DNA of 64,000 nt from contig OZ231126.1 in NCBI GenBank assembly GCA_965153355.1, positions 39,432,001-39,496,000 of the forward strand. The letters run 5' to 3'. Below, piece after piece: positions 8,656-61,467 of this stretch. A program made the translations under genes and the position numbers. The DNA comes from Flaccisagitta enflata (lineage: Eukaryota). Below the pieces are notes generated by a model. That model was given only the letters and a program-made list of their open reading frames with translations. It searched no databases and was not told the origin of the DNA. Each line of letters opens with the position of its first letter. Position 1 is the first letter of the stretch.

Positions 8656-8716
<61 letters not shown>

Positions 8717-12038: not shown

Positions 12039-12123
<85 letters not shown>

Positions 12124-14633: not shown

Positions 14634-14972
<339 letters not shown>

Positions 14973-15171: not shown

Positions 15172-15394
15172 AGCGCACGACATGGTACGGTTCGTCGCAA
15201 GAAACGAAGACGTTTTGGGACTTTGCACGTTTGGCATGCAAACGAGTTGCCAACAACTGTCTGGCCAACGTCGAAGCCATGGAAGAGCTCAAGTCTGGAA
15301 GGGGCAAAGGCAGGGCCTGGATCAGGATGGCACTCATGGAAAAGAAACTGTCAGAGTACATCGTCTCCGCTCTACAACAAACCAAAATCATCAA
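15172..15394 (+). CDS. RUNDC3: RUNDC3-like exon 3 (RUN core)
   Basis: WYGSSQETKTFWDFARLACKRVANNC...GKGRAWIRMALMEKKLSEYI contains the RUN signature GRAWIRxALxEK; phases 1/2 consistent. Confidence 0.95.
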
Positions 15395-15662: not shown

Positions 15663-15818
<156 letters not shown>

Positions 15819-16178: not shown

Positions 16179-16400
16179 AACAAAGCCGGATACACGGCTA
16201 CCTTAGTCGCGTGCGGGTGGGCAGGGGCAGTATTTTAGTTACTAAAGCACTTGGGCAAGTGCAGTGAGGCCAAAGACCGCAAAAACATAAAAAAGTAAAA
16301 TGGGGACCGACCGACCGACCGACCGACCAACCGACCGACCGACCGACCGACCGACCAACCGACGGACAAAGCGGGGTGTAGTGTCGCGTAGCACGCGACT
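16179..16400 (-). mobile_element. Helentron/HINE-like non-autonomous element (AGTCGCG subfamily)
   Basis: Terminal hairpin AGTCGCGTGCTACGCGAC, (GGTC)n, 3' CACGCGACT inverted match and GCCGTGTATCCGGC hairpin, T-rich flanks. Confidence 0.7.
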
Positions 16401-16969
16401 AAAAAATAGACCCATCTCGATTTGTTTGCATATGGGTCCTGAAAAGGGTGTATATAACAAGAATATGATATTTGTTTTTGCCTAACTCGAGCCAAAAAAA
16501 ATAAGGAACATTTTGTTGTGCCAAAAAGTGCCACTTTTTTATGAAAAATACTATATAGAGAAACAAATATGGTGTTTTTTCTACTATTACATAGATCACT
16601 TGATATAATTAATAAGTGACAAAACTTAGCACGGTTAAGCATGGACCTGGGAGGTCCAAAAATTGTTTTGAATGGGCAAAAAGGCAAGATACACGGCTAC
16701 CCCAGTCACGTGCGGGTGGGCAGGAGCAGTACAGAAGGTCACTACAGCCTTTGGGCAGGAGCAGTAGGCTCAAAAAGCTCAAAAACACAAAAAAGAAAAA
16801 AGAAAAAAAAAGACCGACCAACCGACCCACTGTGGGGTATAGAGTCGCGTAGCAAGAGACCTAAAAATATAGAAATACCATAAACTAATCATTTGGAACA
16901 ATTTTTTAGGGTAAAAACTATGTCTAGCATGAGACTCATTCATCTACCGCAAAAGACCTACGAGAAATA

Positions 16970-19119: not shown

Positions 19120-19296
<177 letters not shown>

Positions 19297-20013: not shown

Positions 20014-20324
20014 TACGCCAGAAACAGCGAGTCTTGACGGAGGCGATCGTGATTTCAACGACAGTTCAGAACTCATCTCTTCCATCATTTCCGGCACGGA
20101 GAGTGCTATCGGCGCCGACGAACTGCCCCAATCCGGCGTCGTTGACGGGAGCGGAAGTGGCGGTGTTGACGGTGGTGTTGACGCCGGCTCCGGTGACGGG
20201 CGGCGTAGTGGCAGCGGCAGCGGCGGCAACGAAGGATCGGTCAGAAGGAATTTCTCTTCCGTGTCTTTAGGATCTTTGGAAGATTCAACGGAAGTTGACA
20301 TCAACGGCAATAACAACAATGGAG
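20014..20324 (+). CDS. RUNDC3: RUNDC3-like exon 6 (Gly/Ser-rich linker)
   Basis: GC-rich open frame TPETASLDGGDRD...NGNNNNG after a pyrimidine tract and cag|; phase 2 in and phase 1 out fit neighbouring exons. Confidence 0.8.
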
Positions 20325-21098: not shown

Positions 21099-21316
21099 GG
21101 ACGGGTGATTGCGGGGCAGGAAGTGCCGTGGAATCCTTCTTACTAGGAAGCGAGTCTCCTCCTCCTCCATCTACCAAGTCCATGGACTCCATTTCCCTCT
21201 CCACCATCGACACCAACAACGACAACACCAATGACAACAGCAACAGCAGTGAAGAATCGGTCAGAACCAAATACAAGAAGCTTGAGGCCAAATACAAAAC
21301 CGTCTGTGAACAAAAG
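21099..21316 (+). CDS. RUNDC3: RUNDC3-like exon 7
   Basis: Ends TKYKKLEAKYKTVCEQK, resembling RUNDC3A KWHKMEQKFRIVYAQK; |gtaccg donor, phase 0. Confidence 0.88.
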
Positions 21317-21348: not shown

Positions 21349-21495
21349 AGTCGCGTGCTACGCGACTCTACACCCCGCTTTGTCCGTCCATCCGTCGGTT
21401 GGTTGGTAGGTCGGTCGGACCGACTCGCTCCCCATTTATTTTTTTTAATTTTTGCTGCCCCTGCACACCCGCACGCGACTGCATCCGGCCTTGTT
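21349..21495 (+). mobile_element. HINE-like element in RUNDC3 intron 7
   Basis: TTTT-AGTCGCGTGCTACGCGACTCTACA...CCCGCACGCGACT..CCGGCCTTGTT. Confidence 0.7.
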
Positions 21496-21608
21496 TTCTT
21501 TTGTTTTGTTGTCGTTTTTTTTTAAACGTATTTTTGTGTTGGTTTTTTTTGTGTGTTTTTTTTTTTTTTTTTTTTTTTTGCGTTTGCGTACAATTGAATT
21601 CGAATAAT

Positions 21609-21686
<78 letters not shown>

Positions 21687-21690
21687 TCAG

Positions 21691-21848
21691 GGTTATTTAG
21701 AGGAACTTGTTCGTCTCCGTGAATCTCAGTTGGAAGATGCTCATAAACAGCGCCAAAAACTCGTCGACACGATACAGAATTTTGAAAGTGAAAGTCGGAA
21801 GGAGAGGCATCAACTCGAAGGGATCATCATCGAACTTCAGGCTCAACT
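21691..21848 (+). CDS. RUNDC3: RUNDC3-like exon 8 (coiled coil)
   Basis: GYLEELVRLRESQLEDAH...ERHQLEGIIIELQAQL closely matches the RUNDC3 GYLEELVRLRESQL...LEGVILELQEQL block; |gtgagt donor, phase 2. Confidence 0.95.
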
Positions 21849-24490: not shown

Positions 24491-24848
24491 CGGTCTAGGT
24501 GTAGGAGCTGGCCGGACTGAGTTAGTACTTTACCTGACCTCACTTTCATCCCTGATTTCAACAGGGTGGAACATTCGGAGAGGGTAGTTAGATTATAGGG
24601 TTTGGTCTAGGGGTAGGGTTGGGTTAATGGGTAGGGTTGGGTTAAGCGGTAGGGTAAGGTTGAGGGGAGTGGTAGGGTTGGGTTTAGGGAATGAGTTTAG
24701 GGGTAGGATTGAGTTTAGGGGTCAGTAGGGTTTTGGGGTAGGGATGAGTCAGGGATGACCTTAATAATTCATTGTCGGCGCGATGTCGCGTAAAAAAATG
24801 ATAAAACATACGCGTTTGTATGTCCGGCCAGCTCCTACACCTTTGCCG
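24491..24848. mobile_element. TIR element with 6-bp TSD and telomere-like interior
   Basis: TAATAA|CGGnnnAGGTGTAGGAGCTGGCCGGAC...GTCCGGCCAGCTCCTACACCTnnnCCG|TAATAA. Confidence 0.8.
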
Positions 24849-24883
24849 TAATAACAACCAAAAAAAAAAAAAATCAAATGGAA

Positions 24884-25048
24884 AACAAGGCCGGATACAC
24901 GGCCAATACCAGTTGCGGACGGGTGGGCAGGGGCGGAAATGCGCGTTTTCACACTTTCCAACTCGATCACCATGACGGACGGACCGACGGACCAACGGAC
25001 GGACGGACGGACGGACAAAGCCTCTCATAGAGTTGCGTGTCCGCAACT
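24884..25048 (-). mobile_element. HINE-like element (AGTTGCG subfamily)
   Basis: Hairpin AGTTGCGTGTCCGCAACT, (GGAC)n, AACAAGGCCGGATACACGGCC end; very similar to 50820-50958. Confidence 0.75.
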
Positions 25049-27584: not shown

Positions 27585-27831
27585 ATCTTTCTATCTTTCT
27601 TTTAAGTTGCGGACACGCAACTCTATAAGAGGTTTTGTCCGTCCGTTGGTCCGTCAGTCCGTTTGACCGTCCGCGTCCGTGGGCACAAGTCGAAAAGTGG
27701 GAAAACGAGCTTGTTAGAAGTTTATTGTGTATGTGTGTGTGTTGGAGGGGAGGTTAGATGGGGCGTTGGGTGTGGATGGGGATTCGCTGCCCCTGCCCAC
27801 CCGTCTTTTTTTCTTTCTTTCTTTCTTTTTT

Positions 27832-27983
<152 letters not shown>

Positions 27984-30591
27984 CCTCCCCTCTCTCTCAC
28001 CCAAGCGGCAAAGCCATCATGAGTCCGCCCTTTTCAATCATTCCTTGCTTTTCCTCTTTTCCATTTTTTTTTTTGCCTTAGTCAATATCGGCTCTCTTTT
28101 TGGTTTTTACAGCTTTTTCCATCTTCCTCGTTTCCTTTCTTCTCCGAGAGGAATTCTTTTTGACGTCAACACTTCTGAGGGTCATTTTCAGAGTCTTTAT
28201 GTTCTCGTGTCTATCATAGTTGACTCGGGACCATTGTCGATGACATTGCGCAATGATTGCTCCACGGCACTGTTACTGCCCTAGACGCCCCTTTCTTGTC
28301 GCATCATATTGTGCTGTTGTTTGTGCCACAATTTGCTGCACCATATAACATTAGTTTGGCACACCATCACCATGGATTGGTTTACCCTTCTCATTTACCC
28401 TTCTCTTTCCTCAGCTTTAGAGTAAATAAGGATAACAATTGAATAAACAACTCTGTTAGTGGTTTCTTTATTGAATATTTGTTTTTGTTTATTTTGTAGT
28501 TTTGTGTATGTTGTCAATTTGTCAGCTGTCTCAACCATACGCTTTACGGATTCTTGGTTAATAGGTGTTTGTTATTGTTAACCTCCCCCCCCCCCACACA
28601 CACATTTCATGTACCTTACGACTGAGACGGCCGTGTGTCCGATCATGATGGCCATCCATTTGATAATCAGTTGAATGCGCGCGACTCAATTCTGAAATGC
28701 TTCAACTCGAACCATTAATAATCATTTTGAATTACGTTTTTAACCAAATTGAGGCCTTGAGGGGTGAGCCTATGAGCGTGGGAAGAGTGAAACTAAAAAG
28801 GCAATTGAAATTCAGAGTTGCAACCGATGGGTTAAAAGCCCACGCTCGAGGGCGGCGGCGGCGGTGGCCTCATTGGCGGCGGAGGCGGATTCAGGGGGAA
28901 GGAGGAGGAGGAGGAGGAGGAAGATAAGAGGGGTGAAGATGAGGAAACGGTGGAATAAAGAGGATAATCAGTTGCCCGGAATCGATTCTTTCCCAGCATC
29001 ATAAAAATTCAAGGCAAGGAATTTTTTGCTGCCTCGAGTAAGGCTAAATCTCTCTGCGACTAAAAGTTGCTCTCAAATGAACCCTTTTAAGATTCGCAAT
29101 TTCGAACAGACATCTCTGTTAAAAGTCGTGTCCGTCAGTTGGTTTGTTGCATTGTCATTGATTGGTCAGTCGGTCCAAGCCCATAGAACCGGTGTCGAAG
29201 CATTTCCCGTTTGGCCCGTTAACTTTAATCTTCATCAAATGGTCATGTACTAACACTACTTCATTTAAATAATAGCCTTTTTGTCCATTATAAATTCCGT
29301 GCTTTTTCACAGGGCCGAATGCAAGACACACAATTCATTGTATTTTGATTTAAAATTCATCAAAATCCGTTCAGTACTTTAACCAATATAACATATTATT
29401 CATGTTCAACTTATCTTGTAAAAGCCATGGTATTCTTTTATTCGGATTCTGACTTAAACATGTAAGGGAGCAGTTCAAATTAGTTTTGTTGGTTTTTTGT
29501 CTATTTTCGGTCACTTCAGACTCAGTTCATATCCCGTTGGTCTAAATACAGATATTCTATAGATTTTGTTATATGGAAGCAGTATCAATAATTGTGAAAC
29601 ATATAGTATGGAGTAGTAATGTTGTCCAACTTTCATATGTTAACAAGGCCGGATACCCGAGTCGCGTGCGGGTGGGCAGTGAAAGAAAAGGCTAACCAAG
29701 CATTCGAGTAGGCAGTGATGCACAAACCGTCCATAAATGCCAAAAACGCTAAGCCTTATCATCTGACCATCGCACGGACATAGCGGGTTATAGAGTCGCG
29801 TGCGAGCGAATAAAAACTGGCTTACATTTACACGATGGAAAAAAAAACACGACCAAACACACGGCTAGCGCAGTTGTGTGTGGGTGGGCAGGGGCTTAAC
29901 TTGAGGTCACAAGAGTATTTGGATAGGAGCAGCAAGGTAAAAAGAGTAGAAAGACCGCAATGACGCCAAAATATCAAAGTGTGACCAACGGACGGGCGGA
30001 TCAATGGACACACAAAGCGGGGTTAGGTATAGAGTCGCGTGCGAGCGACCAGAAACGTATGGAGAATAAACCTGATTGTGCAACTCGACAAAGAGTGATA
30101 ACAAAAGTTCCTTGATTGCAACATGGCCATGGTATCATTTTTCAACCTCCCCCTTCATTTCTCCCCATAGCAGAGACTAAACCTAGATCGCAGGAAAAAA
30201 AAACAGAATGATCAGCTGGCAAGAAAGATCTTTGTCACTGTCGAAACGTCCCTTTACAGTCCCTGCCCAGCCGCACGTGACCAGGCTAGTTGTAAATCTG
30301 GTCTTCAGTAATGATTTCCATTCATTCATCCATTCATTCATTCATTCGTTCATACATTCATTCATTCATCGATTTATTCATTCATTCATTCGTTTATTCA
30401 TTCATTCAATTAGAAAATGATAAGTTGGCTTCATTAATTCAGAAGGAATAGGAATGAAAATTTAGAAATAATTCAGAAAATCTAAAAAATCAATTTATCC
30501 ATTAATCAATTAAACATGTTTTTATTCATTTATGTATTTGTTCATTCATTCAAACGTTCATTTTTCTTTATATTTTGTATTGACCTGCCAG

Positions 30592-30658
30592 ATCTGGGAG
30601 TCCATTGCCTAATCGTGACGTCGATGAACTGTGTTGGGACGCTCTTACACCGGCTCAG
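30592..30658 (+). CDS. RUNDC3: Probable RUNDC3-like exon 9
   Basis: Pyrimidine tract + ccag|, 67-nt exon open in the required phase (SGSPLPNRDVDELCWDALTPAQ), consensus CAG|GTGAGT donor; no homology support. Confidence 0.65.
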
Positions 30659-38387: not shown

Positions 38388-38950
38388 CAGTAGATCTCGT
38401 CTAGACTTGAGATAATGGGGGCAAGCATTGTAGGAAAAAAAATAAAGCCAGGGGAGTGATAGTTCAAAAATAGACTAATAACGGGATGCTTTATTGCCCA
38501 TGATAGCTGGTTGCCATGGAAACACATTTCCATGTATTCTCGCTAAAGTATCAATATTTTGAGAGATTTTTTTAGGGAACATTGCTTAAAATAAAATTTG
38601 CTACAACTTTCCCACAGTATATACTGTAAGAATGTCGCTCGTTTAGCAGTTGCTAGGGGTTGTCACACATAGATACGCTCCCTAGCAACAGCCAAACGAG
38701 CGACATTCTTACAGAACATACTGTGGGAAAGTTTTAGCAAATTTTATTTCAAGCAATGTTCCCTAAAAAAATCTCTCAAAATATTGATACTTTAGCGAGA
38801 ATACATGGAAATGTGTTTCCATGGCAACCAGCTATCATGGGGAATTAAGCATCCTTTGATTAGTATGTGATCCAAATATCGCTCCCCTGCCTTCATTCAT
38901 CTTTCCACAATGCTTGCCCCCGTTATCTCAAGTCTAGACGAGATCTACTG
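38388..38950. mobile_element. Fully palindromic Tc1/mariner-like MITE (563 bp)
   Basis: TA|CAGTAGATCTCGTCTAGACTTGAGATAA...TTATCTCAAGTCTAGACGAGATCTACTG|TA. Confidence 0.9.
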
Positions 38951-39010
38951 TAGTTGCGGACGAGAAGAGGCTAAGAATAAGATGGAATTCGAGGAATTTC
39001 ATGTCTCCAG

Positions 39011-39011
39011 C

Positions 39012-39100
<89 letters not shown>

Positions 39101-39281
39101 AAACAGCGACAACAACAGCAGCAGCGACAACGACGACGACAACGACAACAACGACGACGACAACGACAACAACGACGACAAGTCAACAACAACGACAACA
39201 ACGACGACAACAAGTCAACAACGACGACAACAAGTCAACAACGACGACATCAAGTCAACAACGACGACAACAACGACGACG

Positions 39282-39348
<67 letters not shown>

Positions 39349-39425
39349 CGACGACGACGACGACGACGACGACAACGAGAATAATAATGACATCATTATC
39401 AGAAGCGGAAACAACAACAGCAACA
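39011..39425. repeat. (CAA/CGA)n microsatellite region
   Basis: Directly visible. Confidence 0.9.
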
Positions 39426-39704
39426 GGCCAAAATTTCAGCCTCGAGGCTCGAGCCGGCTGGCTCAAATGTGAGCCTCAAAGCTCAATCCTTGGCCTTGAA
39501 CCTAAATTCCTGATTCATTAGTCGTTACTCGTTAGTATAGTATGTCGGTCGGTCATGTCAGTCCGTCACATCATTGAAATTTAGTCAACCTAAATTTTAC
39601 ACGTAATGAGGGTAAATATGTAATTATATAGCTAAGTATGAGCCAGTAAGTGAATAACAGAGCATGCGACTGTTGCCTTAGTGGGCTTATTCGTATAGAT
39701 TTTT

Positions 39705-39984
39705 AGATGCGTCCTCGCATCTCTATAATAGGCTGTGTCCGTCGGTTGGTTGGTTGGTCGGTTGGTTGGTCGGTTGGTCGGTAGGTAACGCATTCATTAA
39801 AAACATCGAAATCCAGTATTTTTTCAACAGAAAAGTGGTTCTAACCCACTAAAAGAAGCATACATCAAGTAATTCATTCATTCAATCATTTATTCATTCA
39901 CAAATGACATTCATTCGTAAAAATCATTCATTCATAAAAACATTCATTCAAAGAGGACGCATCGTTGGCCTACTTGGCCTTGTT
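39705..39984 (+). mobile_element. HINE-like element (AGATGCG subfamily)
   Basis: TTTT-AGATGCGTCCTCGCATCTCTATA, (GGTT)n, 3' GAGGACGCATC..GGCCTACTTGGCCTTGTT. Confidence 0.7.
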
Positions 39985-39999
39985 TTCCTCCATCTTCTC

Positions 40000-40053
<54 letters not shown>

Positions 40054-40476
40054 GTATTCGGTTCCGAAGATGATTTGACGACGTCTTCGGGGCTTCGAGG
40101 CTTCCTCGAGAATGAGTTGAAGTTGGAAGGCGTCCTCAAGGAGTCGACGCGCGGAGGTCAATCGGGCGCCTCGACGGGCCTATCAAAGGCGGAGAGGAAG
40201 AAGTTGCTTCCGGAGAACAGTTGGTTGAAGACGCTCTACCACGAGATTTCTTCGGGAGAAAAGCAAGACAACGAAGAAAGTGAAAAAGCGCGACTTTTGC
40301 GACGCGTTGGAGACGCAGCGAAAGACGCCGCTAAAGATGCCGCAGCGGGTCATCAACAACAGCTGCAGAATCAGCAACTGCATCCTAATCATCAGCGAAA
40401 TCTGCTGCAAGACGACGATGACGATCGCCTTCTGGACGGCGACGTTGGATTGGATGAAGATGGAGAACAAAAAAAG
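40054..40476 (+). CDS. Uncharacterised protein, internal exon (upstream exon not identified)
   Basis: (CT)n-cag| acceptor, 141 GC-rich open codons (VFGSEDDL...DEDGEQKK), AAG|gtaaaa donor, phase 0/0, in frame with 40700. Confidence 0.85.
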
Positions 40477-40699
40477 GTAAAAAACAGTATCTTTTACTGC
40501 ATTATTATCGTTCGTTCATTCGTTCGTTCGTTCTTCATTCTTTTGTTCATTCATTCGGTCATGTCCATTCGCTCTTCAGTTTTTTTATTAATTTGGTCAT
40601 TTACTTATTCATTCGTTCATGCATTCATTCATTCATTCATTCATTCATTCATTCATTCATTCATTCAATGGTCAATCTATTCATTCATTTAATTCAAAG

Positions 40700-42325
40700 G
40701 TCGTTCCCGAGGAAGCGGAGGAGACGTTCCGCAAACTGCGCAAGGCCAACGACAAAGCCATCCGTTACTCGTTACATCGCGAAACCCTTATGAAGTATCT
40801 CGACAAAGATTTGGTACCTCGAGGGCTTCGCATCAATTTAGTTCCGACTATCGGCAATCAAGTCGAGGATTTCGTGACCAAATGGCGCGACACGCTGCAC
40901 AACGCCTCCAAGGGACTCATGGAGCTCATCGTCGAATTCTGCACGAAGGAGGAAGCCAAGCTGAACGTGGAAATCATGAAGCTGCAGGGGAAATTGTACG
41001 ACATGATCAACGACACTCACCAACTGGCGGAGACGAGCAACTTGATCGCCAATTTGAGCGAACGCGCGCGTGAGAGACTGACCCGGCGCAAAGAACGGAA
41101 ACTGGAACGAGACGAAGGCGACATGATGACGGTGCGAGATAATCGGACTGGAGAAGTCATCGCCACCTTGAAGAGTCACAACCCGTTGTTAGATCCACCG
41201 CTTCCGGCCTCAACGCATCAGAAGAGTTACGGCGGCGGCGGCGGTGGTGGCGGTGGCGGAGGTGGCGGTGGTCCGGAGTTGTTTTACGGTGAACCCATCA
41301 CTCCAAATTTCTTCTCTCAACTGCCGCCCCATCTTTCTCATCCCGCCGCTCTTGCTCTTCCTCCTTCCTCTTCTCATCATCAACTTCCTCCTCATCACGC
41401 TTTTCCTCCGCAGTTGCCTTACGTCACGCCTCCGCCGTCGGTGAAAGACGAAAGCGGAAGAGTCAGTATTTCCGAAGACCCAGACGCCGATGCGCTACTA
41501 CAACAACAACAGCTTCAACAACAACAATCGGTAGATCCTGGTGTCGTTGAAAAATCTAAAATGAATCCTAATGCTAAGCCTTTCGAAGTTCCTAAATTCC
41601 AACCATCCCAACAACACCAACAGCACCAACAACATCAACAACAGCAACCGCCAGTGTCGCAGAGTCAAACGTCGGTCGTTCCATCTTCTTCCTCTACTTC
41701 CACTTCTTCGTCTTCTTACATGATTATAAGCCAAGACTTTCCCACGCCCGTGATTGGTGGCGTTTACGTCAACACTAGCTACGCCAGCAATACCGATTTG
41801 TCGTCATCTTACGCCACTGTGGGGACGAATCTTGGCTACGGTACGACGCCCGTTATCCCCTCTGGTGGTGGTGGTGGTGGTGGCGGCGGCGGCGGCGGCG
41901 CTGGAGGCGGTGGAAGTGGCGCACATTTCAGTAGAGATGGTAATCGCGAAAGTGGTGGTAATCGTGGTGGGCGTCAGTACAGAGGTGCCGGCAGTGGCAG
42001 ATTACACGGCGGTCGTGGTGGAGGTGGCGGTGGTGGTGGCAGTGGTGGTGGTAGTTCACACATAAACGGAAACGTCGGTAGAGAGCAGACGGGAGGAAGA
42101 GATGGTGGAAGGTGGGAGTCAAGTGGTGGAAGCGGTGGTGGGCGCGGTGGTAGAGGTGGCGGTGGTGGCTCGGATCATTACCGCGGAGGTGGAAGAGGAG
42201 GAGGTAGAGATCCTGGTACGCCGAGTTCCAGACACAGATCCTCCCAACACAATGTCAACAATGGACTCGGAATCTTGCCAAATGGTTATTCGTCATACGG
42301 CAAGAAACATGGCGCGGCGCACTGA
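40700..42325 (+). CDS. Uncharacterised protein, last exon: Penelope-like retroelement N-terminal-like domain, PAM2-like motif, Gly/RGG tail
   Basis: 541 open codons; RYSLHRETLMKYLDKDLVPRGLRINLVPTIG..FVTKW..LMELIVEFC..RKERKLERDEGD, then SKMNPNAKPFEVP and RGG repeats; TGA ending 42325. Confidence 0.85.
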   Translation, partial: VVPEEAEETFRKLRKANDKAIRYSLHRETLMKYLDKDLVPRGLRINLVPTIGNQVEDFVTKWRDTLHNASKGLMELIVEFCTKEEAKLNVEIMKLQGKLYDMINDTHQLAETSNLIANLSERARERLTRRKERKLERDEGDMMTVRDNRTGEVIATLKSHNPLLDPPLPASTHQKSYGGGGGGGGGGGGGGPELFYGEPITPNFFSQLPPHLSHPAALALPPSSSHHQLPPHHAFPPQLPYVTPPPSVKDESGRVSISEDPDADALLQQQQLQQQQSVDPGVVEKSKMNPNAKPFEVPKFQPSQQHQQHQQHQQQQPPVSQSQTSVVPSSSSTSTSSSSYMIISQDFPTPVIGGVYVNTSYASNTDLSSSYATVGTNLGYGTTPVIPSGGGGGGGGGGGGAGGGGSGAHFSRDGNRESGGNRGGRQYRGAGSGRLHGGRGGGGGGGGSGGGSSHINGNVGREQTGGRDGGRWESSGGSGGGRGGRGGGGGSDHYRGGGRGGGRDPGTPSSRHRSSQHNVNNGLGILPNGYSSYGKKHGAAH

Positions 42326-43824
42326 CAACGTAATGCACCGCAATAACGACGCGGTGTAGCACATTGACAACGTGGAACATCGACAGTGCCTCGTAACAAA
42401 AACGCTGCACAGTGACAGTGCCATGTATTGACAATGTCTTATTGTGGCAAAAGTGTTATGCAATCTCCACTGTTTTCTCTTTCTCCTCCTCCTCCTCCTC
42501 CTCTCCTCCCTCTCCTCCTCTTCACAGTCATCGATTACAGATAATGTCATGAAACGACTTTAACACGAATTAAAAAAAAACTGAAAACGAGTTTCGATGC
42601 AATTTCTTCAAATATTTAATAGATTTTTGTCATCTATGCTTTTTGCTTTTTTTCTGTCTTTTCTTTTTTTTCCCCATAGTCTTTCTCTTTCTTCCTTTTT
42701 TTCTGTAATCAACGGTAAATGCAATTCGTTCTGTTTTTTTAATCATTTTATGAAGTAACTAGAAAGCCTTTAACTTAAAATAAAACTCAAAGAGTTAAGG
42801 AAGGTCATGGTATGTGCAAGATACAGTCGGAAGAAAGAAAAGTGCAGTCTTCAAGCTTTAGGGGCTGATTCTGACTTTTTTTTTGCTACAAAATACTTTT
42901 TACATTTTCTAAATAAAAACTCATCGAGGGAAGGGAGAAAAGAGATGGTCAAAAATTTGAGTGTAAGACATTTTTTGTAACCGGTCTAGTCTTTTCCAGT
43001 CGTCCATGACGTGACATGACGTTTTTGTACAATTTGTAAAAGGAAAATTTAGTTTCGAGTTTGGTTTTGCCTTGTTGTTATTTATCAAAGACTTCTCTCA
43101 TCAAAAAGTCACTATGTATACGTCCAGATGTGTCTCATTGGCCGCCCTTCCCCATGCTTTCACGTCATGCGGCCCGTTAAAACATTTTGTCTGTTTGGAT
43201 GACTCGTGTCAGAAGTCACAATTTTTGGATGGTCTCGCTCAAATGAATAGGTTAAGATTATCTTCAGCGAGTAGATTTATTTTGAAAATTGTTAAAAAGA
43301 ATAACGTATAGTAAAACGGCTAGATATTTGATAAGAGATCATAGCAATTGGACCTATGACATGACGTCTTTATAATGGACGAACATGTTAGTAATATGAA
43401 CACACTTGCCTTCCTTTCCTGCACCATTTTATCATCATGGTGTCAAGATTTTTCCTTTACAAAATTTGCATGTTTAATGTTTTCTACAACAAAATCTTTA
43501 AAACATGAAATACTCACAATTGCTCGTGTGAGCCTGACTAGGGCGATCGTTGTTGATATTCGAGTTTTATATCTAAGTTTTCCTACAATAGGGAAAATTG
43601 TTTTCGCCTCATGATAATTACTGTTGAAACCTCTGTCATAAGTTTCACAAAAAAATTGCTTGATTGACATAAAATGATTGAAAATGAAAAGAGAAAAACT
43701 AACAAACTTGAAAATGTTTGATTTAAAACTTGAAATATTCGATAAAATAGATAAGTAACTGAGAGTTAAGGTTCTTTATCTAGTTTCTGCAAGTCGTTGT
43801 GACCTAATTACCGCAGTTGTTTTT

Positions 43825-44185
43825 AGTCGCGTGCTACGCGACTCTACACCCCTCTTTGTCCGTCGCTCCGTCACACTTTACTTTTTTTGGGGTTTTAGCC
43901 TGTAAGGCCTCACTCCGCCTGCCCAAATGATAGTGACTTAAAATACAGCCCCTGCCCACCTGTAACTGACTGGGGTAGCCGTGAATCCTGCCTTGTTTAG
44001 TCGCGTGTTACGCGACTCTACACCCCACTTTGTCCGTCCGTCGGTTGGTCGGTCCCCACTTAACTTTTTCGACGTTTTTGAGCGTTTTGAGCTCTTAGCT
44101 CCTGCCCAAATTCCCCAATGACCTTTTCTGTCACTGCCCCTGCCCACTTGCACGCGACTAGGGTAGCTGTGTATCCGGCCTTGTT
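43825..44185 (+). mobile_element. Head-to-tail dimer of HINE-like elements
   Basis: Units 43825-43997 and 43999-44185, each AGTCGCGTG..CGCGACTCTACACCC...GCCTTGTT. Confidence 0.75.
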
Positions 44186-44263
44186 TTTTTTATCCAATAA
44201 TATGATCATGCTTTTTTTCTTTTTACCTTTCTTTCCTCTTGTTTTTTATTCTTTCATCCTTTC

Positions 44264-45673: not shown

Positions 45674-47933
45674 TTAAAAATCAAGATCGTCGTCATTGTC
45701 AAAGAACAAATCGTAAAGTGTAGTCTTGGATTTTGATTCTTTGTTTGTCTTCGATTCGTTCGCGGTTGAACCTGGTGCCGCTGACGCCGCCGAGGCTGAA
45801 GCCGAAGTCTCTGCCGCTGACACTCCTAGCGCGTTATCTGTGGCTTCCGCCGACGTCACCAATGTTTCAGAGTTTGTCCGACTCTTCCTCTTCCTTTTTC
45901 TGAAGACCTCCTTCCGTGGCTTTCTTCCCGGTTCACTTCTACCCGTTGCCACAACTGGCGCCGCCACGGGTACTGTTTCCGCCTCTGTCGCCGTTGGCGG
46001 AACCGCCACCATCCATTTAAGACTACTCTTCTTCCTCCCTTCTCTTTTCTCTCCGTCGGTTTCCGTTCTATTTGCTTTCCCCTTTTCCGTTTGCTGTTGT
46101 TGAACTAACTCGGCGCCGCTCTTTTGTCCATACGTTTTTTTGGGCCCGACGTCGACATGGTCTTTTTGTTGGAAAAAGAATCCCTTCGGCCTAACGTCGA
46201 CGGCAGTGTTGCTTTTTTGTTGATAACACATTTCCTCGTTTCTGACGTTGGTGGCGCTGCGTGGAATAGACCAAGGCTGAGTTTGCTGCAAATGCGTCCC
46301 TAAAAGCGAAGGTTGCGGCGACGAACAAATAATTGGCGCTGGCTGCCGCATGACATCTGTTAACGATGGAATTTCTCCTCTCGGTTGCCGCATCTTATCC
46401 CCCAAGAACGGAATCTCCGCGCCGTCTCTCAAAGCCATGGACGAAAGTTTCAAATCGGCGGCGGAAGAGGGAGCCGTAGAAAACTCCTCACAACTGTCAG
46501 TCTCCTCCGCTTCTTCATCGGTCTCCACCTCACTTTCCTTTTCCTCCTCTCCCCCTTCTCCTTCGTTACCCGCCTCATTCTGCTTAATTCTCTTCCTCTC
46601 CTTCCTATATTCATCACCCTCAAAAACTTTTTCCAGAGGCGAGGCGGAGCTGATTTTGGCTCTAGATTGTTTCGACGGCGGATTCCTGGTTCCCGACTGC
46701 GGCGTCAATGACATGATGGATTCGGAAACTTCTCTGATGGTATCGAGATCGTCCGAAGGCGCGTGATATTCTTCATGAGTTCGATCGTAAGTCATCAGAT
46801 GCAAAGGAGTTACTTCCATCTCACTACCCATCGTCGACATGGAAGAAGTGGTAGAAGTCTTAGAAGCCCGTGATGAGGATGAGATGACGATGAAGAGGTC
46901 TTCGTCCTCGTCTTCTTCCTCGTCTTTGACGACAGCTGCTTCTACCGTCGGTATGGCACCAACGCTTTTCGATCTCGCCTTTCCGTGTTCCAAGATTTCC
47001 CCCGTGGATGATGGTGATGTCGGGGCCATGGGCTCTTTTGGGCTATCGCATGAGGCGTCAATTGAGACCTGGAATTGTGGTTCGCTTCGTTGCTGCAAAA
47101 TCAATGGAGCTTCCTGCGTAGATACATCCTCGTGTTTATCGGAAGGTCTTGGTTCCAGTCTTGGCTCTGGACTGGGTAACCGTGGCTTTTCTTCTTCTGA
47201 TTGTCCATTTATTGCGCCATTAATCGTCGCTTTCACAGTATCTGCTCCATCATTAAACGCAAGTTCATTGGCATTGGGAGCAGTTGATTGTTTGGCAGAC
47301 TGCTCCACTTCAAGGATGGACGGCAATCTCCCATTTTCCTCCATCGGTAAAGGATGAACCAAAGTGTTGCTGGCATCCATTGAAGGCGGAGTCGTCGAAT
47401 CTGCCATCTCAATTTCGACGTCCGCATCTGTGTTGTCCACGATGGCTGCATTGGGAATGGTACCAACATTCGACACAAATCGGTCGTCAATCGCAGCTGA
47501 ACTAAGATCTGCAGCGGCAGCAGCCAAGGTAGCCTTGACATCTAGGCAAGTTATGGTGGCTTTGCTTTCGTGGACAGACAAGGCAGCCTGTATCTCCTGA
47601 GCAGTGACGGTAGGTCTACTACCATTCAAGGCTGCAGATGGGCGATGCTCAGACAAAACTGATGACTGAATTGAAGCAATTGAAGCAGTCTTGGATTCTC
47701 CTCGTTTGCGCTGTTTGGGTGGTTGATCCATCTGTTGGGTGGGATTTTGATCCATCTGTTGGTCGGGGGTTTCATCCATCTGTTGGTTGGGTTGTTGACT
47801 CATCTTTTGTTGGGCCTGTCTCAATTGTTGCAACTTCCATTCAGGGATGCGGACTTGGTTAGGAAGTCGGATAAGCGGCGCTTGATCACGATCTGCTGCT
47901 GCCAATCGATCGCGGCTCAAAGCACGTCCGATT
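45674..47933 (-). CDS. BEST: Bestrophin terminal exon 7 (low-complexity C-terminal tail)
   Basis: ctttcag| phase-2 acceptor links in frame (DIR|IGRALSRDR) across a 112-nt intron; 2260-nt open frame to TAA; total CDS 4884 nt. Confidence 0.8.
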
Positions 47934-47970
47934 CTGAAAGGTCATAACAGCATTTTACACAACAACAACC

Positions 47971-48016
<46 letters not shown>

Positions 48017-48045
48017 CCAACAACAAACAAACAACAACGAGATAC

Positions 48046-49692
48046 CTAATATCCATCGGCTCATGAACGCTGGCATAAGACTGAAAGGATCCTGTTTCCT
48101 TGGACAAGAGCGATCGATGCGGCAGAGAATGAGTCGACTGTGTCGTTTTCGTCGACTTCCGTTTGTTGCTCCAGGCGCCGGATGACGTCGTCGTCGTCGT
48201 GAAAGATGGCTGTTGCTGCAGATGATGTTGTTGACGTTGTTGTTGCTGCGTCATTGTCGCCAGATCCTGGACTGTCACCGAAGTGCTGTCTGGCCGTGCC
48301 AAGCTGTTGGTTTTGTGGCGTTTCTGGCGATGATGATGATGATGTTGATAATAACGTCGATTTCGGTCCGGTGAATCTCCTGACTTTTTGACCGCTTCAC
48401 CAGCGCCTTCTTCTTCTTCCCCTCCTCCATCTAGTTTTCTCCCTCCACTTCCTCTCCCTCGTACAACTCCATCTCTATCTCTCTCTACTTCTTCCTGCGA
48501 GTCGCTGCTGTCGCAACAACTGTGGTAGATCGAGTTATCCTGACTCTTCAAAGAACCTTCGGAGAGCGACAATTCTCTGGCTTTGGTGTACGTCGCCGGT
48601 GACATGACGCTTCTACGCAGCCGCAGCGGCGGCTTTTTGAACATGCAGCACTCGCAACCGTCGCAGCTGCCGCAACAACTCATCAAATTGTTCCATCCTC
48701 TTTTAAAAGGATTCAATCTGAGGCAGTCTCCCGATCGCTTGTATATGACGGGAATTTTGCGAGGTTCTTCTTTGGGCTTAAAGTCTTCCGTTTGAAACAC
48801 GGGTTGGGTTTGAGTTTGCAGTTGAGCCATTTTCGCGGATTTGGCCAAAATGTCCATGGAGTCTTTGTCGAGAGGCGACGCCGCGACGGAGGAAGAAGCG
48901 TCAGTCGCCGATGCCGTCGTCGGATCCCCCGTTGCCAGCGGCATCGTCGTCGTCGTCGTCATTCCTCCGCCAATGACATGTTTATCTAAATGCCGCATGC
49001 GCTTTTCATGTTGTTGTTGCTGCATCTGCATTTGTTGCTGTCGTTGTTGCATTTGTAATTGTTGCTGTTGCAGATGCAGCGTCGTCGCGGCTTGACGCGA
49101 ATGCTGCCGACTCATCGGTTTTTGCAATCCGGCGCGGAAGTTGGAGAAGCGTCGCGTTGACACCGAATCCAAGTTGGCGAACCTCGAAGATCCGCCGGAG
49201 GTCATCGTCGCCCTCGATCCCCGAGTACTAGTCCGCGTGGATAGGAGCGAGCCTTTGGTGCCAGCGACAGATTCCGAACCTCTCCTCAGCGACCCCGTCA
49301 GGACGGAACCCGATCCCACTTTGGGAGGGGGACGACGTTTCATCGTTGCTAAAGGTTTCTTGTTATTCCGAACTTGTTCTTGTTGAGTCTTTGACAATCC
49401 AAAGGCTCGACCGGTTTGCTGACTAGACTCCGCCGTGGTGCCAACTCCTCCTTCCTCTTCCTCCCCTACTCCTCCTCCTTGCTCCTCATCCTCCTCGGGG
49501 ATATCTTTCTCTTTGACGATGAAGCCTTCTTCTTCCTTGACTAGCACTCCCGCCGTAGATCCTTCAAACACGTTGGCCTTTTTGCCGTAAGCGGCCAAAG
49601 TGTAAGGAATTTCCGGAACCTTGTCCCAAAACGCGTCCTTCATCAATTCAGGATGCGCGTTGTGGTAATCGTCAACGATGGCGTAGGATATG
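48046..49692 (-). CDS. BEST: Bestrophin exon 6 (end of conserved region, start of long tail)
   Basis: ISYAIVDDYHNAHPELMKDAFWD..PYT..FEGST matches bestrophin VD..P.L..D.YW..PYT..F.GST; 1647-nt open exon; AG|gtatct. Confidence 0.9.
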
Positions 49693-49910
49693 CTGTGATA
49701 GAAAGGAGAGAGAGAGAGCCAGAGATAGACAGATAGACAGATAGACAGACGCAGCAGCCAGCCAGCCAGATAGACAGATAGACAGACGCAGCGGCAGAGG
49801 AAGAAAGAAAAAGAGTTTGATATTAGCTTACGAAACCAGTCCTGAACCATTCGAAACTGCCAATAAAAGGAGTTTTTATAAAGAGTTTATCCCCATCGAC
49901 AACAACATAC

Positions 49911-51582: not shown

Positions 51583-51742
51583 CTGAAAAAAAAGAGAGGA
51601 TTTATCAAAGGTCTACAGCATCATGCATTAGCAATAACAAAAGCAATAACGTCAACATCAACCACGACAACAACAAACACAACAGGAAATGAAAAGAAAA
51701 AAAAAACAACGAAAAGAAAAGATAAAAAACAACTTCAACAGC

Positions 51743-51774
<32 letters not shown>

Positions 51775-51778
51775 CGGC

Positions 51779-51852
<74 letters not shown>

Positions 51853-51934
51853 GGATACTAACAACAACTACAACAACACCACCACCATCACCACCACCAC
51901 CACCACCACCACTACCACCACCACCACCACCACC

Positions 51935-52007
<73 letters not shown>

Positions 52008-52063
52008 GCAACAACAATAACAACCATAACAACAAAAACAACAGCGAAATGATTATTATTTAC

Positions 52064-52177
52064 CGCATTATGGTTCTCCTTAGAATTCTACCCTCATCAT
52101 CAAATCCCGTGACGTATGCGGACACGTATAAAGCGGTTGTATCAGGCCATGGAAGTGCATATTGAATATCCCACCAC
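52064..52177 (-). CDS. BEST: Bestrophin exon 2
   Basis: WWDIQYALPWPDTTALYVSAYVTGFDDEGRILRRTIMR; ttcag| and |gtaaat. Confidence 0.95.
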
Positions 52178-52750: not shown

Positions 52751-52778
52751 GTTAATCAATTCCAATGTATACACTCAC

Positions 52779-53062
52779 CGATTGACGATTAGCGACACGT
52801 AAAATCCGAGAATGAACGTCAGCGGGATCGAGTCCAATCTCGAATTGCAATAGTAGCAGATTTCGTAAAAGGTCCTCGAATTGGCGACCAAATTACGAGC
52901 AAAGACCAGATAATTGCAGAGAGTCACTCCGACCAACAGAATCGCGAAGAACACGAATTCCGGCATGAGAAGTTTGTAGACGGAACCGCGCCATCTGCGC
53001 ATGATCCGTGCGAACGACAGAAATGTCGCCGTAGCAACGTCCGCTTGATACGTCACCGTCAT
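52779..53062 (-). CDS. BEST: Bestrophin (Ca2+-activated anion channel family), coding exon 1
   Basis: MTVTYQADVA..RWRGSVYKLL..IPLTFILGFYVSLIVNR: bestrophin N-terminus and TM2 neck (I-x3-F-x3-F); CG|gtgagt. Confidence 0.97.
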
Positions 53063-53190
53063 CGTTGATTTTTTGTTAGTAGGAGCGAAATGATGTGGTT
53101 GCGGTTGTTGTTGATATCTTCGTTGTTGATATTTTTGTTGTTGTTGTCGATGTTGTTGTTGTGGTTGTAGTTGTGGTTATGGTTGTTGTT

Positions 53191-53270
<80 letters not shown>

Positions 53271-53887
53271 CGTTGTTGTTGTTCTTGCTTTTGCTTTTGT
53301 TTTTGCCTTTGTTTTTGTTTATGATTTATTTTTACTTGTTTTTGCTCTTATTTTTGTTTCTGTTGACCTGTTTTTGTTGCTCTACGTTGCCTCGTCATCC
53401 ATGTTTCTTTCTCGAATTGTTTATTCAATGATTACAACACTGTTGCCATGAGATGATGACGAGTCACGTAGTTTCGTGAGAAGTAGTAACTGCTTTTCGC
53501 TGAACACAGAGTTTCTGATCGTCCAAAAAAGAAGAACACGCTGTGTAATTCTGTTGCATGGAAATATTCTTTTATCTCTGTCGTAAAGGAGTGGATGATT
53601 TCACATGAAACAATAACGACGCATCGCCGGACAGGTTTCCCTTTAAGCTATTGTGCGAATTTCAACTTCCTTTCATTTCTATTCTTCCCATCATTTTCTA
53701 TTTTTCGCACGCCCCAGCGAATTTCGCCTGATTACATCTTTTTCAAGAGTTGAGATGAAAAAAAAAAACTTTGAAGCCTTTGCAAATTAGTTATAATTCA
53801 AAAGTTGACAAGAACCTCTCCATTTTCTCTTTTTCCCATTGTCTGCCGAGACAATGTCGAGAGAGAAAAACAAAATTTCAAGTTTTT

Positions 53888-54070
53888 AGTCGCGTACACG
53901 CGACTCTACACCCCGCTTTGTCCGTCGTTCGGTCGGTCGGTCTGTCACACTTTAATCTTTTATGATTTTTTTTTTGGACCTCACTGCTCCTGCCCAAATG
54001 GTCCAGTGACCTCAAATATGGCCCCTGCCTACCCGCACGCGACTTCGGTAGCCGTGTATCCGGCCTTGTT
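53888..54070 (+). mobile_element. HINE-like element (AGTCGCG subfamily)
   Basis: AGTCGCGTACACGCGACTCTACA...CCCGCACGCGACTTCGGTAGCCGTGTATCCGGCCTTGTT. Confidence 0.75.
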
Positions 54071-55109
54071 TCTTCTCCGTTCCGCTTGCAACGACCTCAC
54101 GAGGCCTCATTCTTTAGTCACGATTCACATTTTAACACGTTCTCACTCTACGTGTTCTCCGTGTCTTTGCAATGAAAATTTTATGGAACTTTCGTTCGAG
54201 AGGTTTCCTTTCTTTCAAGTCATTTTACTTTCCTTTTTTCTTCTGTGTTTAATTAAAAGTTTGTTGTAAAGATGTCACTTAGAGTGGTTTTGCGTGATTT
54301 TATGAAAATCGAGGGTAAGCGCAGTTTCAAGATCTCTCTTTTTCCTTAGCCAAAAGCTTGTTGCAAATCCACCAATGGAAAGAACCGGTGGGATTTGGAT
54401 ACACGCTGCAAGTGATGCTTTGAATCAATACGATGGCTGTGTCGGTCGTTCCGTCGGTTTGACAAACTTTATTGGGTCGATCAGTATTATCATCATCGTT
54501 TTTGTTTGTTGGTCGGTCGGTCGGTCCGCTCATTAGTTACAGCTATCCAGCTATACAGACCCTGCCGAGCGCTGACCTCGCTTCCATAAAACGGTGAAGG
54601 GTGTATGTTGGTAACATCCCACAAATGACAAAGTAGGCGGAGGGGGGGGAGAGGGAGGGGTTGAATAAGAGATATCATGAAAAGAAAGCGGTTGAGGTGC
54701 GCGATAAGTCTCATTGAAGATGCAACAGATTTGAGAGTAAGATTTAACGTTGGGCAGAGAGGGTGATGGGAGTTGTATTGAAGATGTTACGTAGGTGAGA
54801 GGGAGAGGGAGAGGGAGTTTGTGGGGGGGGGAGTCTTCTGGAAAGTAAGATTAGTGGTCGGATGTGAAAAACATGGGGGGATAGGGGGCACGATGACGGA
54901 TGTGTACATATTTGAGTGGTGGGATATCTGAGAGGAAGGTGCGGCAGTGGGACGTCGGGTGGGTTTCAACAAATCATATCACTTGTGTATCAGTTACCTC
55001 ATTTGGTGGGTCACGAAGCGTGCACAACTTAATCGGATTCATCTTTTAATGTGATTTTTGAAGAGATGAGACACGTCTTCGTCAAAATTCAGACGTCACT
55101 CACAGCTTG

Positions 55110-59146: not shown

Positions 59147-60065
59147 TCCCCCGTTCTTTTTCTGAAGGGCAACGTATGCGTTTCTGTGATGTCGTTTCCT
59201 GAAATAACTTTTGAGTCGCATTAACGAGGAATTCTTAACAGCAAACTCTCATCTTAGTGATCTCTTTACAGCCCCTCATCCCAGTCATCCCAATCATCTC
59301 TTTTAAGCCCCTTACTTTTGCTTTACCCATCCCACTGATCTCCTATTATCGCTTTACACAACCCCCTAGCCAAAGGATCCCTCGCGTAAGACTCATTGCT
59401 AGCCCTCTTTTTTCCTTCTACCGATCCCACAAGCCTTTTTTACAGCAATTAACGCTAACATTGCCGTACGCCCCCACTATGCTTAACTTCTGCGGAGGGT
59501 TGATTTAATAATTTCCCTACGATAATTACCATGGCACGTGAAATAATATGATAAAACCCGTTATAGGAGAGTGAATAAGGCTTATTCACTCTCCTTACCG
59601 GTTTATCCCAACCTTCAACAAATCCCTCCCCGAACCATCATCCACTTCCCAAACCATTTGAGTTATTAAAAAAAAACTTATTATCCCACCAGCCGCCCCC
59701 CCCCTCTCGCCATTACCTCTCTCTATCCTTGCCCCCTACACCCTAGCTTCACCTCTGAACCATCCTCTTCCCATAAAGACCATGAATTTTAGGAAGGTTG
59801 GCCCACCGCCTCCTAATTTTACCCTATCTACCTCCCCTTTCTCCCCATCACCTAACCTTTAAGGATGTTTGGTCCACTGCCCCCTTGCTCACCCCTTTAC
59901 CTTCGCATCATCCCTTCCCCACCCCTAACACCATACCCTGACCCCCCATCCATCTTCTCCACCTGGGATTGAGATCGGGATTGGACGCATATGGAAAGCA
60001 AAGGTACAACTGCAATAAACAAAATTGAAGGTGACTTGAAGGAGAGAAATTATCGCACAATCTTG

Positions 60066-60958
<893 letters not shown>

Positions 60959-61467
60959 GCCCGCTTCTCCTTTTCCCGGCCTTATGCCACTTTAAGACAT
61001 TCCGCCCTCAGGCCTGAGATCAGCGACCGGGAAGAGGAAAAGGAATTGGCGCCGAGGAAGAGATTACAGGCAAAGGATGAGAAACAGCCTGAGATGAAAT
61101 CGAAGCCAAAGGTGGAGATGATAGGCAGAGAATAAGAGAAAGGCTGAGATGGAGCCATAGGTAGGCGTAGGTAGGGCCAGAGCGAGAGATGATAGGCGAA
61201 GGATTAGAGAAAAGTTAAAGAGGATGAGATGATAGACAAAAGATGAGATTTGAGACTGATCAAAATCTAGAGCCTAAGGAAGAGATAAGAGGCTAAAGTA
61301 ATACAAAAAGATGAAGCATAAGCTGAAACGAGAGGCAGAATATGAGGCGAAGACAAGCTAAGATAAAACCAAAGTAACAGCAAGAGGGGGCTAAAGATAA
61401 GAGAATTTTAGACTGACTCAAAAGCCTGAGCCAAAGGAGGCGATAAGATGCTTATAGTTATACTACG

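Follow-up and report, generated by a model that had tools for sequence, protein, structure and literature searches.

The window analysed here, a 64,000-nucleotide stretch of Flaccisagitta enflata genomic DNA (contig OZ231126.1 of assembly GCA_965153355.1), is eukaryotic DNA of about 40% G+C with many microsatellites, and it carries an 11-exon gene on the + strand that runs from an ATG at 2472 to a TGA stop at 42323-42325, a genomic span of about 40 kb. The coding sequence (CDS) comprises 3399 nt and specifies 1132 residues with zero internal stops, and every junction is GT-AG, as determined by tblastn of orthologous proteins combined with junction refinement. This is a RUN-domain host gene of a marine planktonic animal which, in this lineage, possesses a 682-residue C-terminal extension. 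Within the extension lies a helical domain, designated X, whose homology to the N-terminal domain of Penelope-like element (PLE) open reading frames (ORFs) is well supported by sequence comparison, and X is followed by linkers, a PAM2-like peptide and a Gly-rich tail with RGG motifs.

The exons were located by searching the window with ortholog proteins of 1029-1088 aa, which gave collinear high-scoring segment pairs (HSPs) from 2472 to 42322. Coding exon 1 (2472-2557, +) holds the start codon (MAVEN...), where residues 1-29 of ortholog P0155 align at 93% identity, and ends in a GT donor with a frame-consistent join. Exons 2-5 (14657-14772, 15172-15394, 15728-15817 and 19215-19295, +) encode the RUN domain and are covered by collinear HSPs of 90-100% identity with GT-AG boundaries. 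Exons 6-8 (20014-20324, 21099-21316 and 21691-21848, +), placed by tblastn and by their junctions, encode a low-complexity linker and then a heptad-rich segment. Exon 9 (30592-30658, +), with 22 codons matched at 96-100% identity, ends in phase 0 and joins exon 10 through a junction peptide that is identical in ortholog transcripts. Exons 1-9 amount to 1350 nt of CDS and are separated by a repeat-filled intron of 9.4 kb from exon 10 (40054-40476, +), an internal exon of 141 codons without an ATG, whose AG at 40052-40053 lies behind a (CT)n tract; this array, at 39990-40052, is the polypyrimidine tract of the exon 10 acceptor. Intron 10 (40477-40699, +) is of the GT..AG type, contains a (CATT)n array, is present in a contig from a DNA run and is spliced out of RNA contigs. 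Exon 11 (40700-42325, +) is terminal and intronless; its translation gives 541 codons plus the TGA, begins in phase 0 at the N-terminal edge of X, and includes X, the linkers, the PAM2-like motif and the RGG tail.

Together, exons 10 and 11 provide 682 codons without an internal stop, corresponding to residues 451-1132, or the 3' 60% of the gene. The first-pass annotation of this DNA, made from the letters alone, had described a spliced and intact 682-codon frame; the two-exon frame and its codon count are as it described, but the 40054-42325 frame is not a complete gene, because there is no ATG at 40054, and it represents the last two of 11 exons. A free-standing gene of 682 codons is ruled out by the missing ATG, the internal acceptor and the upstream exons collinear with the orthologs.

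The N-terminal half of the protein is defined by its RUN domain (PF02759), detected by Pfam in the orthologs at E 9e-33 to 5e-32, and the window exons are 90-100% identical to these proteins. The best solved relative of the domain in the PDB is the RUN of Rap2 interacting protein x (RPIPx) / RUFY3, with E 6.6e-34. Taken as a whole, the N-terminal ~430 residues presumably most resemble RUNDC3, which we take to be a closer counterpart than RUFY3. Downstream of RUN, the low-complexity linker gives way to the heptad-rich segment, invariant across the four orthologs and probably a coiled coil on the evidence of its heptads; a FYVE domain was not found in a Pfam scan of the orthologs. RUNDC3B is presented in passages of one report as a RUN-domain, Rap2-binding protein (PMC5363240). 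The architecture, which the first reading did not recognise from any named gene, is not an unrecognisable one: the first ~430 residues constitute a RUN-domain, Rap2-interactor-type protein (PF02759, RPIPx / RUFY3 match), and the architecture then proposed, a PLE domain with PAM2-like and RGG modules, lacked the main recognisable domain, the N-terminal RUN.

Orthologs reveal that both halves belong to one protein. A search of 1.84 billion representative proteins with the first 167 residues of exon 11 returned a 1029-aa match, 99% identical over the query and with 546 residues upstream of it. Four ortholog clusters of 1029-1088 aa are known from contigs of 3868-6206 nt, all RUN-bearing and with the same architecture; because these lengths compare with a genomic span of ~40 kb here, the ortholog contigs are spliced mRNAs. 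The orthologs are close relatives, with 86-91% overall identity, and database searches place the chimeric gene in just one group of marine planktonic animals, all closely related.

Public sequencing runs also bear on the splicing of the extension. The stretch, or part of it, occurs in 20 of 24 listed public runs (11 recorded as RNA) from 10 studies, mostly marine metagenomes and metatranscriptomes, and four public runs were compared in detail over 39530-42700. In the metatranscriptomes of two different studies, one contig each (X3 record 10, 1259 nt; X6 record 18, 2641 nt) joins 40473 directly to 40697 and skips intron 10 (there 40474-40696), while a DNA-run contig (X1 record 5) reads into the intron, to 40598. 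The 2641-nt contig has 1392 nt beyond 40059 that are unlike the adjacent genomic DNA, beside an upstream CDS of 1350 nt, and would fit a full-length mRNA, the stretch compared being 39530-42700. Word depth in the DNA run is even over the exons, at ~1e2, which is suggestive and gives no copy number. Expression of the host gene, which the first reading had put forward as a check, is borne out by intron-free RNA contigs from two studies together with the ortholog transcripts.

Within the frame, 20 positions differ between the window and the RNA or DNA contigs, and 17 of these changes are synonymous and three non-synonymous; the variants within 40700-41185 are synonymous in five of five cases. Identity to the four orthologs varies strongly along exon 11: it reaches 98-99% in X (the first 150 residues of the exon), falls to 22-46% in the Pro/Gln-rich and Q/S-rich linkers, rises to 80-92% in the PAM2-like block and 68-84% in a block beginning SYMIISQDF, and stands at 59-66% in the Gly/RGG tail. 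Among the orthologs, X is conserved to the same degree as the RUN domain. Neutral evolution, named in the first-pass annotation as an outcome that would count against its reading, is at odds with both the 17 versus 3 variants and the contrast of 98-99% in X with 22-46% in the linkers. By these patterns of substitution, the exon 10-11 frame is under purifying selection.

Domain X (40700-41149, +) is modelled by AlphaFold2 as a three-helix bundle with helices at exon-11 residues 4-35, 56-102 and 106-148. From a 58-sequence alignment, the prediction of three long helices reached a predicted local distance difference test score (pLDDT) of 92.2 and a predicted template modelling score (pTM) of 0.81. 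Pfam has no significant model over X, nor a significant match for exon 10, and the two returned only chance-level rows (PEX14-like E 0.059, Archease 0.028, DUF3958 0.032). Foldseek of X against the PDB gave nothing at E<=0.001, the top entry being ferritin-like at E 0.92. A wide VIA-align search peaked at Z 8.9 with syntaxin Habc, below the ~13 under which matches of helical bundles are rated non-specific; at the level of the predicted model, this match shows only a generic three-helix bundle. The ESM Atlas contained no usable match for X, and a query with P0017, another member of the family, brought up structural rows that were all weak (TM <=0.33). A predicted complex of two X copies scored 0.00, offering no support, and was not used as evidence. 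The possibility, raised at the outset, that a known cellular domain would match better is not borne out, none having been found for X by Pfam, Foldseek or VIA-align.

X belongs to a very large family. Among the 1.84 billion proteins searched, 760 representatives (50%-identity clusters) match at E<=1e-3 and 65 at E<=1e-10, and after the orthologs the closest member is at most 41% identical to host X. In the alignment of 58 family sequences, P40, G42 and L43 are invariant, and H26, L30, P49, F58, W62, S70, L73, K131 and K134 are conserved in >=90%; the pattern quoted in the first reading, from H-x2-[FTL]L through [IV]P[KR]GL to K-x2-K-x2-RD, agrees with these conserved columns. The window contains one copy of X, the second-best six-frame match having E 0.1. 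Scans of metagenome contigs with family alignment A4 and with X itself returned nothing, and neither did a scan of viral contigs with A4.

The relationship to PLEs emerges through P0089, a PLE protein of the frog Ranitomeya imitator, which host X matches in phmmer at E 3.9e-10 (1.84 billion library). The 120 best relatives of P0089 are mostly annotated as proteins with a reverse transcriptase (RT) domain and carry RVT_1, PF28514 (DUF8422) and PF26215, with GIY-YIG in one. A profile of X matches 65 of the 120 frog PLE-type proteins, typically at residues ~35-164. Pfam applied to eight long frog members found RVT_1 in six and GIY-YIG in two (one above cut-off), and RT precedes GIY-YIG where both were found. 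In P0200, X lies N-terminal to RT and GIY-YIG; in P0259 it lies downstream, in what looks like read-through into a tandem copy. PF28514 also marks frog PLE proteins missing X and, because of this, is not X itself.

Direct comparison confines the similarity to this one domain. Alignment of the four host orthologs with ten full-length frog PLEs by hhalign produced a single match over X only (Prob 97.1%, E 6.9e-11, 133 columns), in which host residues 590-723 correspond to element residues 98-230. Likewise, tblastn of five full-length frog PLEs against the window found X only, at E 7e-11 to 2e-7, with other HSPs at E>=0.46. Host X is 26-34% identical to the frog PLEs. Passages of a report on such elements give the Penelope/Poseidon-type order as a putative nucleic-acid-binding N-terminal domain, RT and GIY-YIG, and residues 27-173 of Poseidon_Ac, a PLE of the lizard Anolis, are modelled there as an extended helical head-to-tail dimer contact (PMC11167929). 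The first-pass proposal that 40727-41122 is akin to the PLE domain preceding RT is upheld by the phmmer match (E 3.9e-10), the 65 of 120 profile matches and the hhalign probability of 97.1%.

The other parts of a PLE were not found at the locus. No RT or endonuclease similarity was detected in the window by tblastn with the five frog PLEs, and Pfam found no RVT and no GIY-YIG in exons 10-11. No Rfam family reaches its gathering score in the 64 kb, hence no hammerhead, and no long direct repeats flank exon 11, where only microsatellite families were seen. With nothing beyond X in the tblastn search, and the Rfam and repeat searches empty, the absence of RT, GIY-YIG, pseudo-long terminal repeat (pseudo-LTR) and hammerhead noted in the first reading stands. 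An active or decayed PLE insertion is ruled out by the lack of RT and endonuclease, the single copy of X in the window and the conserved spliced frame. Separately, four public frog gene models (P0097, P0246, P0225 and P0180) include pieces of PLE ORFs under names such as keratin 18-like in Bombina bombina and contactin-2 in Bufo bufo; they are more likely chimeras of annotation than domestications.

Beyond X, exon 11 encodes further conserved segments. The PAM2-like peptide (..KSKMNPNAKPFEVPKF.., 41546-41593, +) matches Pfam PF07145 below the cut-off, and its core is invariant in the four orthologs. As an isolated 30-residue segment it scores 19.0 bits (E 0.0011; cut-off 20), PF07145 being the sole Pfam family there; the ortholog peptide scores 17.4 bits against the same cut-off of 20, and the score within the whole exon is 14.4 bits. 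A scan of 289 proteins found the MNPNAKPF-type pattern in the host gene and its orthologs only, plus one chance-looking match. Downstream, a conserved block (SYMIISQDF..YVN..YGTTPV; 41705-41854, +) is 68-84% identical to the orthologs, versus 22-34% in the preceding Q/S-rich stretch. The Gly-rich / RGG tail (41855-42322, +) occupies exon-11 residues 386-541, with ~six RGG motifs, invariant islands and a conserved C-terminal end. All three segments that the first reading placed after X are in the translation, namely a stretch rich in Pro and Gln, the PAM2-like motif (MNPNAKPF) and the Gly/RGG tail with its ~six motifs; the identification of a PAM2-like motif stands as to its invariant core and falls just short as to its score (19.0 bits, cut-off 20).

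The evolutionary position of host X was examined in a FastTree phylogeny of 193 X domains over 139 columns, which is unrooted and has many unresolved forks. All 47 frog PLE rows lie in a 93-row part of the tree other than that of the host. The other 98 members of the host clade are ORFs of ~150-520 aa with a basic N-terminus, X and a disordered Arg-rich tail, followed by a stop; Pfam found no family in six of seven ORFs of this type and, in the seventh (P0076), only a weak TAP42 below cut-off. Among the listed members of the host clade, none has a link to an RT. The layout of exon 11, X and then a long disordered tail, matches free-standing family members of 300-520 aa. For two sets of RT-less ORFs of 430-505 aa (P0013/P0017/P0019 and P0061/P0075/P0076/P0077), the contigs recur at ~3.6-4.3 kb and ~5.1-5.3 kb, which suggests full-length two-ORF elements or transcripts with ORF1 followed by a second ORF. 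A motif scan of the 150 best X matches found ADKG together with PKxHK in P0089 only. A search for longer proteins with the family profile recovered only the four RUN orthologs from 7999 scored candidates and is no test of RT linkage.

The best explanation overall is a RUN gene with a captured retroelement-family domain, to which we assign a probability of about 0.6. The locus is a genuine, selected chimeric gene, and probably an exaptation of a transposable element (TE) domain by terminal-exon capture. The terminal 1.6-kb exon 11 would most likely derive from the capture (exonisation) of a retroelement ORF. We infer that a PLE was the donor, rather than the ORF of a related element, and that transfer went from TE to host, because the family is large and diverse, because the RUN fusion is narrow and its next relatives are <=41% identical, because host X is nested in the family, and because exon 11 lacks introns, has a phase-0 start that coincides exactly with the edge of X (compare P0007-P0009) and consists of X with a long disordered tail behind it. 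In our judgement, this account of how the chimeric gene is built and how it evolved is probable. The host co-option of a PLE N-terminal domain proposed in the first-pass annotation is sustained as to the homology and the spliced, selected host gene; its PLE source is the less secure part, 0 of 47 frog PLE rows falling in the host branch.

Several observations weigh against this explanation. The host pair sits on a long branch within a clade of 100 rows, with local support of 100, to which none of the 47 frog PLE rows belongs. A profile of the PLE region that follows X detected such sequence in only three of 170 proteins outside the frog set (P0089, P0091 and P0106); P0089 and P0106 fall in the non-host part of the tree, and P0091 is absent from it. 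The unrooted tree leaves the element-to-host direction as one that we infer from sequence features. Part of the conservation reflects the short divergence of the orthologs, and more can be read from how the segments differ than from their identities as such. The PAM2 match is under the Pfam gathering score and went unreported at E<=0.1 in whole-ortholog scans. Finally, the organism's own poly(A) RNA run (X24) has zero depth on exons 10-11 in the ~6% of its reads examined, which shows neither expression nor absence.

The grouping in the tree would be readily accommodated if the donor had been something other than a PLE: a gene resembling ORF1 or gag from a different class of retroelement, or a multi-copy, free-standing family that shares X with PLEs. 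The outcome, a domesticated terminal exon, would be the same. The branch of host X holds the 98 ORFs of 150-520 aa that lack RT but no frog PLE row (0 of 47), these ORFs stop after a disordered Arg-rich tail, and contigs of ~3.6-4.3 and ~5.1-5.3 kb leave room for a second ORF. We consider such a donor unlikely, although with appreciable weight: PLEs are the sole family members of known context, no LINE- or LTR-type domain (that of a long interspersed nuclear element or long terminal repeat element) was found in any family member scanned, and the legend of Fig. 1 in one paper mentions PLEs whose ORF1 is separate (PMC8557442).

It is decidedly improbable that X is instead an old cellular helical domain kept by the host gene, which PLEs and other ORFs acquired from a host. 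Among 1.84 billion proteins, the only RUN-linked members are near-identical orthologs, and the next relatives are <=41% identical. Furthermore, the 760 clusters at 50% identity are as expected for a multi-copy element, host X is nested within the diversity of the family and not outside it, and exon 11 is intronless and begins exactly at the domain edge. The unrooted tree would allow this opposite direction, and the fold, generic for a three-helix bundle and of syntaxin-Habc type (Z 8.9), would suit it. That exons 10-11 are no functional part of the RUN gene, arising from read-through, an assembly chimera or non-functional exonisation, is extremely improbable: the read-free poly(A) RNA sample of the species (~6% examined) and the repeat-filled 9.4-kb intron before exon 10 would be in keeping with it, but four ortholog clusters of differing source have the same in-frame junctions, these fall in phase 0 and use canonical splice sites, variants are 17 synonymous versus 3 non-synonymous, X is as conserved as the RUN domain, and the 2641-nt RNA contig reaches 1392 nt upstream of exon 10 versus an upstream CDS of 1350 nt.

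The surroundings of the gene include other coding regions and abundant repeats. An open frame at 52775-53176 (-), which belongs to a neighbouring animal gene, translates into the N-terminal portion of a bestrophin (PF01062, E 5.7e-24), a channel protein. Two open frames of 755 and 643 aa, at 45674-47941 (-) and 47955-49886 (-), are rich in Ser/Thr/Gln/Glu and match no Pfam family significantly; a single neighbouring gene, 3.3 kb past the stop of the RUN gene, probably has both as large exons. Just upstream of exon 10, the segments 39636-39741 and 39848-40059 have a summed DNA-run word depth of ~1e6, versus ~1e2 on the exons, and are covered by the organism's poly(A) RNA reads, which points to a very high-copy dispersed repeat. 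Translations of the 'CPSVG.SVG' type, similar to this repeat, occur at 16235-16696, 21351-21722, 24684-25046, 27606-28022 and 53775-54269. In intron 1, near-identical open-frame translations at 8396-8758 and 11807-12199 (+), 3.4 kb apart and each ending in a (CT)n array, look like a dispersed repeat pair. AAC/ACA-type trinucleotide arrays of hundreds of bases at 38900-39500, 51650-52165 and 59973-61135 give rise to poly-N, poly-T and poly-Q frames. About 1.5 kb past the stop codon, at 43822-44186, two direct-repeat families with 174-188 nt spacing and 81-90% identity could represent either a tandem satellite of short extent or a portion of some repeat element.

As regards function, the whole protein could couple a small-GTPase-binding RUN adaptor to polyadenylated messenger ribonucleoproteins (mRNPs). 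In such a protein, poly(A)-binding protein (PABP) would be engaged through its MLLE domain by the PAM2-like peptide, and RNA by the RGG tail. Classical PAM2 proteins include ataxin-2 and Paip. X, for its part, might serve as a helical scaffold or oligomerisation module, in line with the dimer contact modelled for the lizard PLE in the passages cited above (PMC11167929). Drawn from the domain content of the protein, this functional account of a RUN adaptor linked to mRNPs is tentative and, on balance, doubtful, and the role in mRNPs, translation control or retroelement restriction put forward in the first reading is likewise hypothetical.

A bolder variant, which we regard as rather improbable, is that capture brought in an entire ORF1-like module of a retroelement, X with its Arg/Gly-rich and putatively nucleic-acid-binding tail, which the host reuses either as an animal equivalent of the adaptors for endosomal mRNA hitch-hiking in fungi or as a restriction factor. 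As an adaptor, RUN would bind a Rap/Rab-type GTPase on vesicles, and the PAM2-like peptide and RGG tail would hold PABP-bound mRNAs. As a restriction factor, the protein would use its X domain to assemble together with that of active elements from the same family and so sequester the ribonucleoproteins of those elements. Were this reuse true, no host function of a PLE-type N-terminal domain would have been described before it.

The significance of the probably captured retroelement-family domain lies partly in the elements themselves. Of the major classes of eukaryotic retrotransposons, PLEs are understood least, and neither a Pfam model nor a solved structure exists for their N-terminal domain. 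At this locus, a PLE-type domain is held nearly unchanged by selection, separate from RT and endonuclease, which offers a tractable system for probing the role of the domain, for example in oligomerisation or nucleic-acid binding. The gene would also add one more case of a retroelement ORF captured as a terminal exon. The combination of RUN, a PABP-docking-like motif and an RGG tail is undescribed as far as literature searches show, and a full-text search found no paper pairing 'RUN domain' with 'PAM2'; if the functional account is true, the protein would link membrane/GTPase signalling with mRNA handling in a group of marine planktonic animals that are abundant. Confined as it is to one narrow lineage, the case is of interest but does not change the field.

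Comparison with known systems places the gene between several families. With canonical PLEs, which bear a C-terminal endonuclease (for example P0186 of Bufo gargarizans and P0200 of Ranitomeya imitator), it shares a homologous domain of ~133 columns, the signature H..L..Y.....[IV]P[KR]GL..P..F...W..S..L ... K..K, and the position of the domain at the N-terminal edge of an ORF in the PLE or of an exon in the host. It differs from them in that host X lies inside a spliced 11-exon gene, on another branch of the family, and without RT, GIY-YIG, hammerhead or pseudo-LTR. With RUFY3, RPIPx and RUNDC3A/B, the gene shares an N-terminal RUN followed by a coiled-coil-like segment, whereas it adds an extension of ~680 residues with X, the PAM2-like motif and the RGG tail. 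To our knowledge, no such extension occurs in RUNDC3 or RUFY proteins.

A parallel in possible working, not in descent, is provided by fungal Upa1, a protein with FYVE and PAM2 that is reported to act in endosomal mRNA transport (PMC4466420). Both proteins combine a membrane- or GTPase-targeting domain with a PAM2-type peptide, but the membrane module of the host protein is RUN, not FYVE, and its PAM2-like peptide, at 19.0 bits versus a cut-off of 20, is putative. In evolutionary terms, the closest comparisons are with host genes built from TE parts. SETMAR gained a TE domain by exon capture, and Arc and PEG10 are domesticated gag-like ORFs. We know of no described domestication of a PLE-type N-terminal domain, and literature searches, which were not exhaustive, found none. 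Like SETMAR, Arc and PEG10, the gene described here holds a TE-family domain in a selected, spliced host gene from which the catalytic parts of the TE have been lost; unlike them, it carries a domain from the PLE-type N-terminal family.

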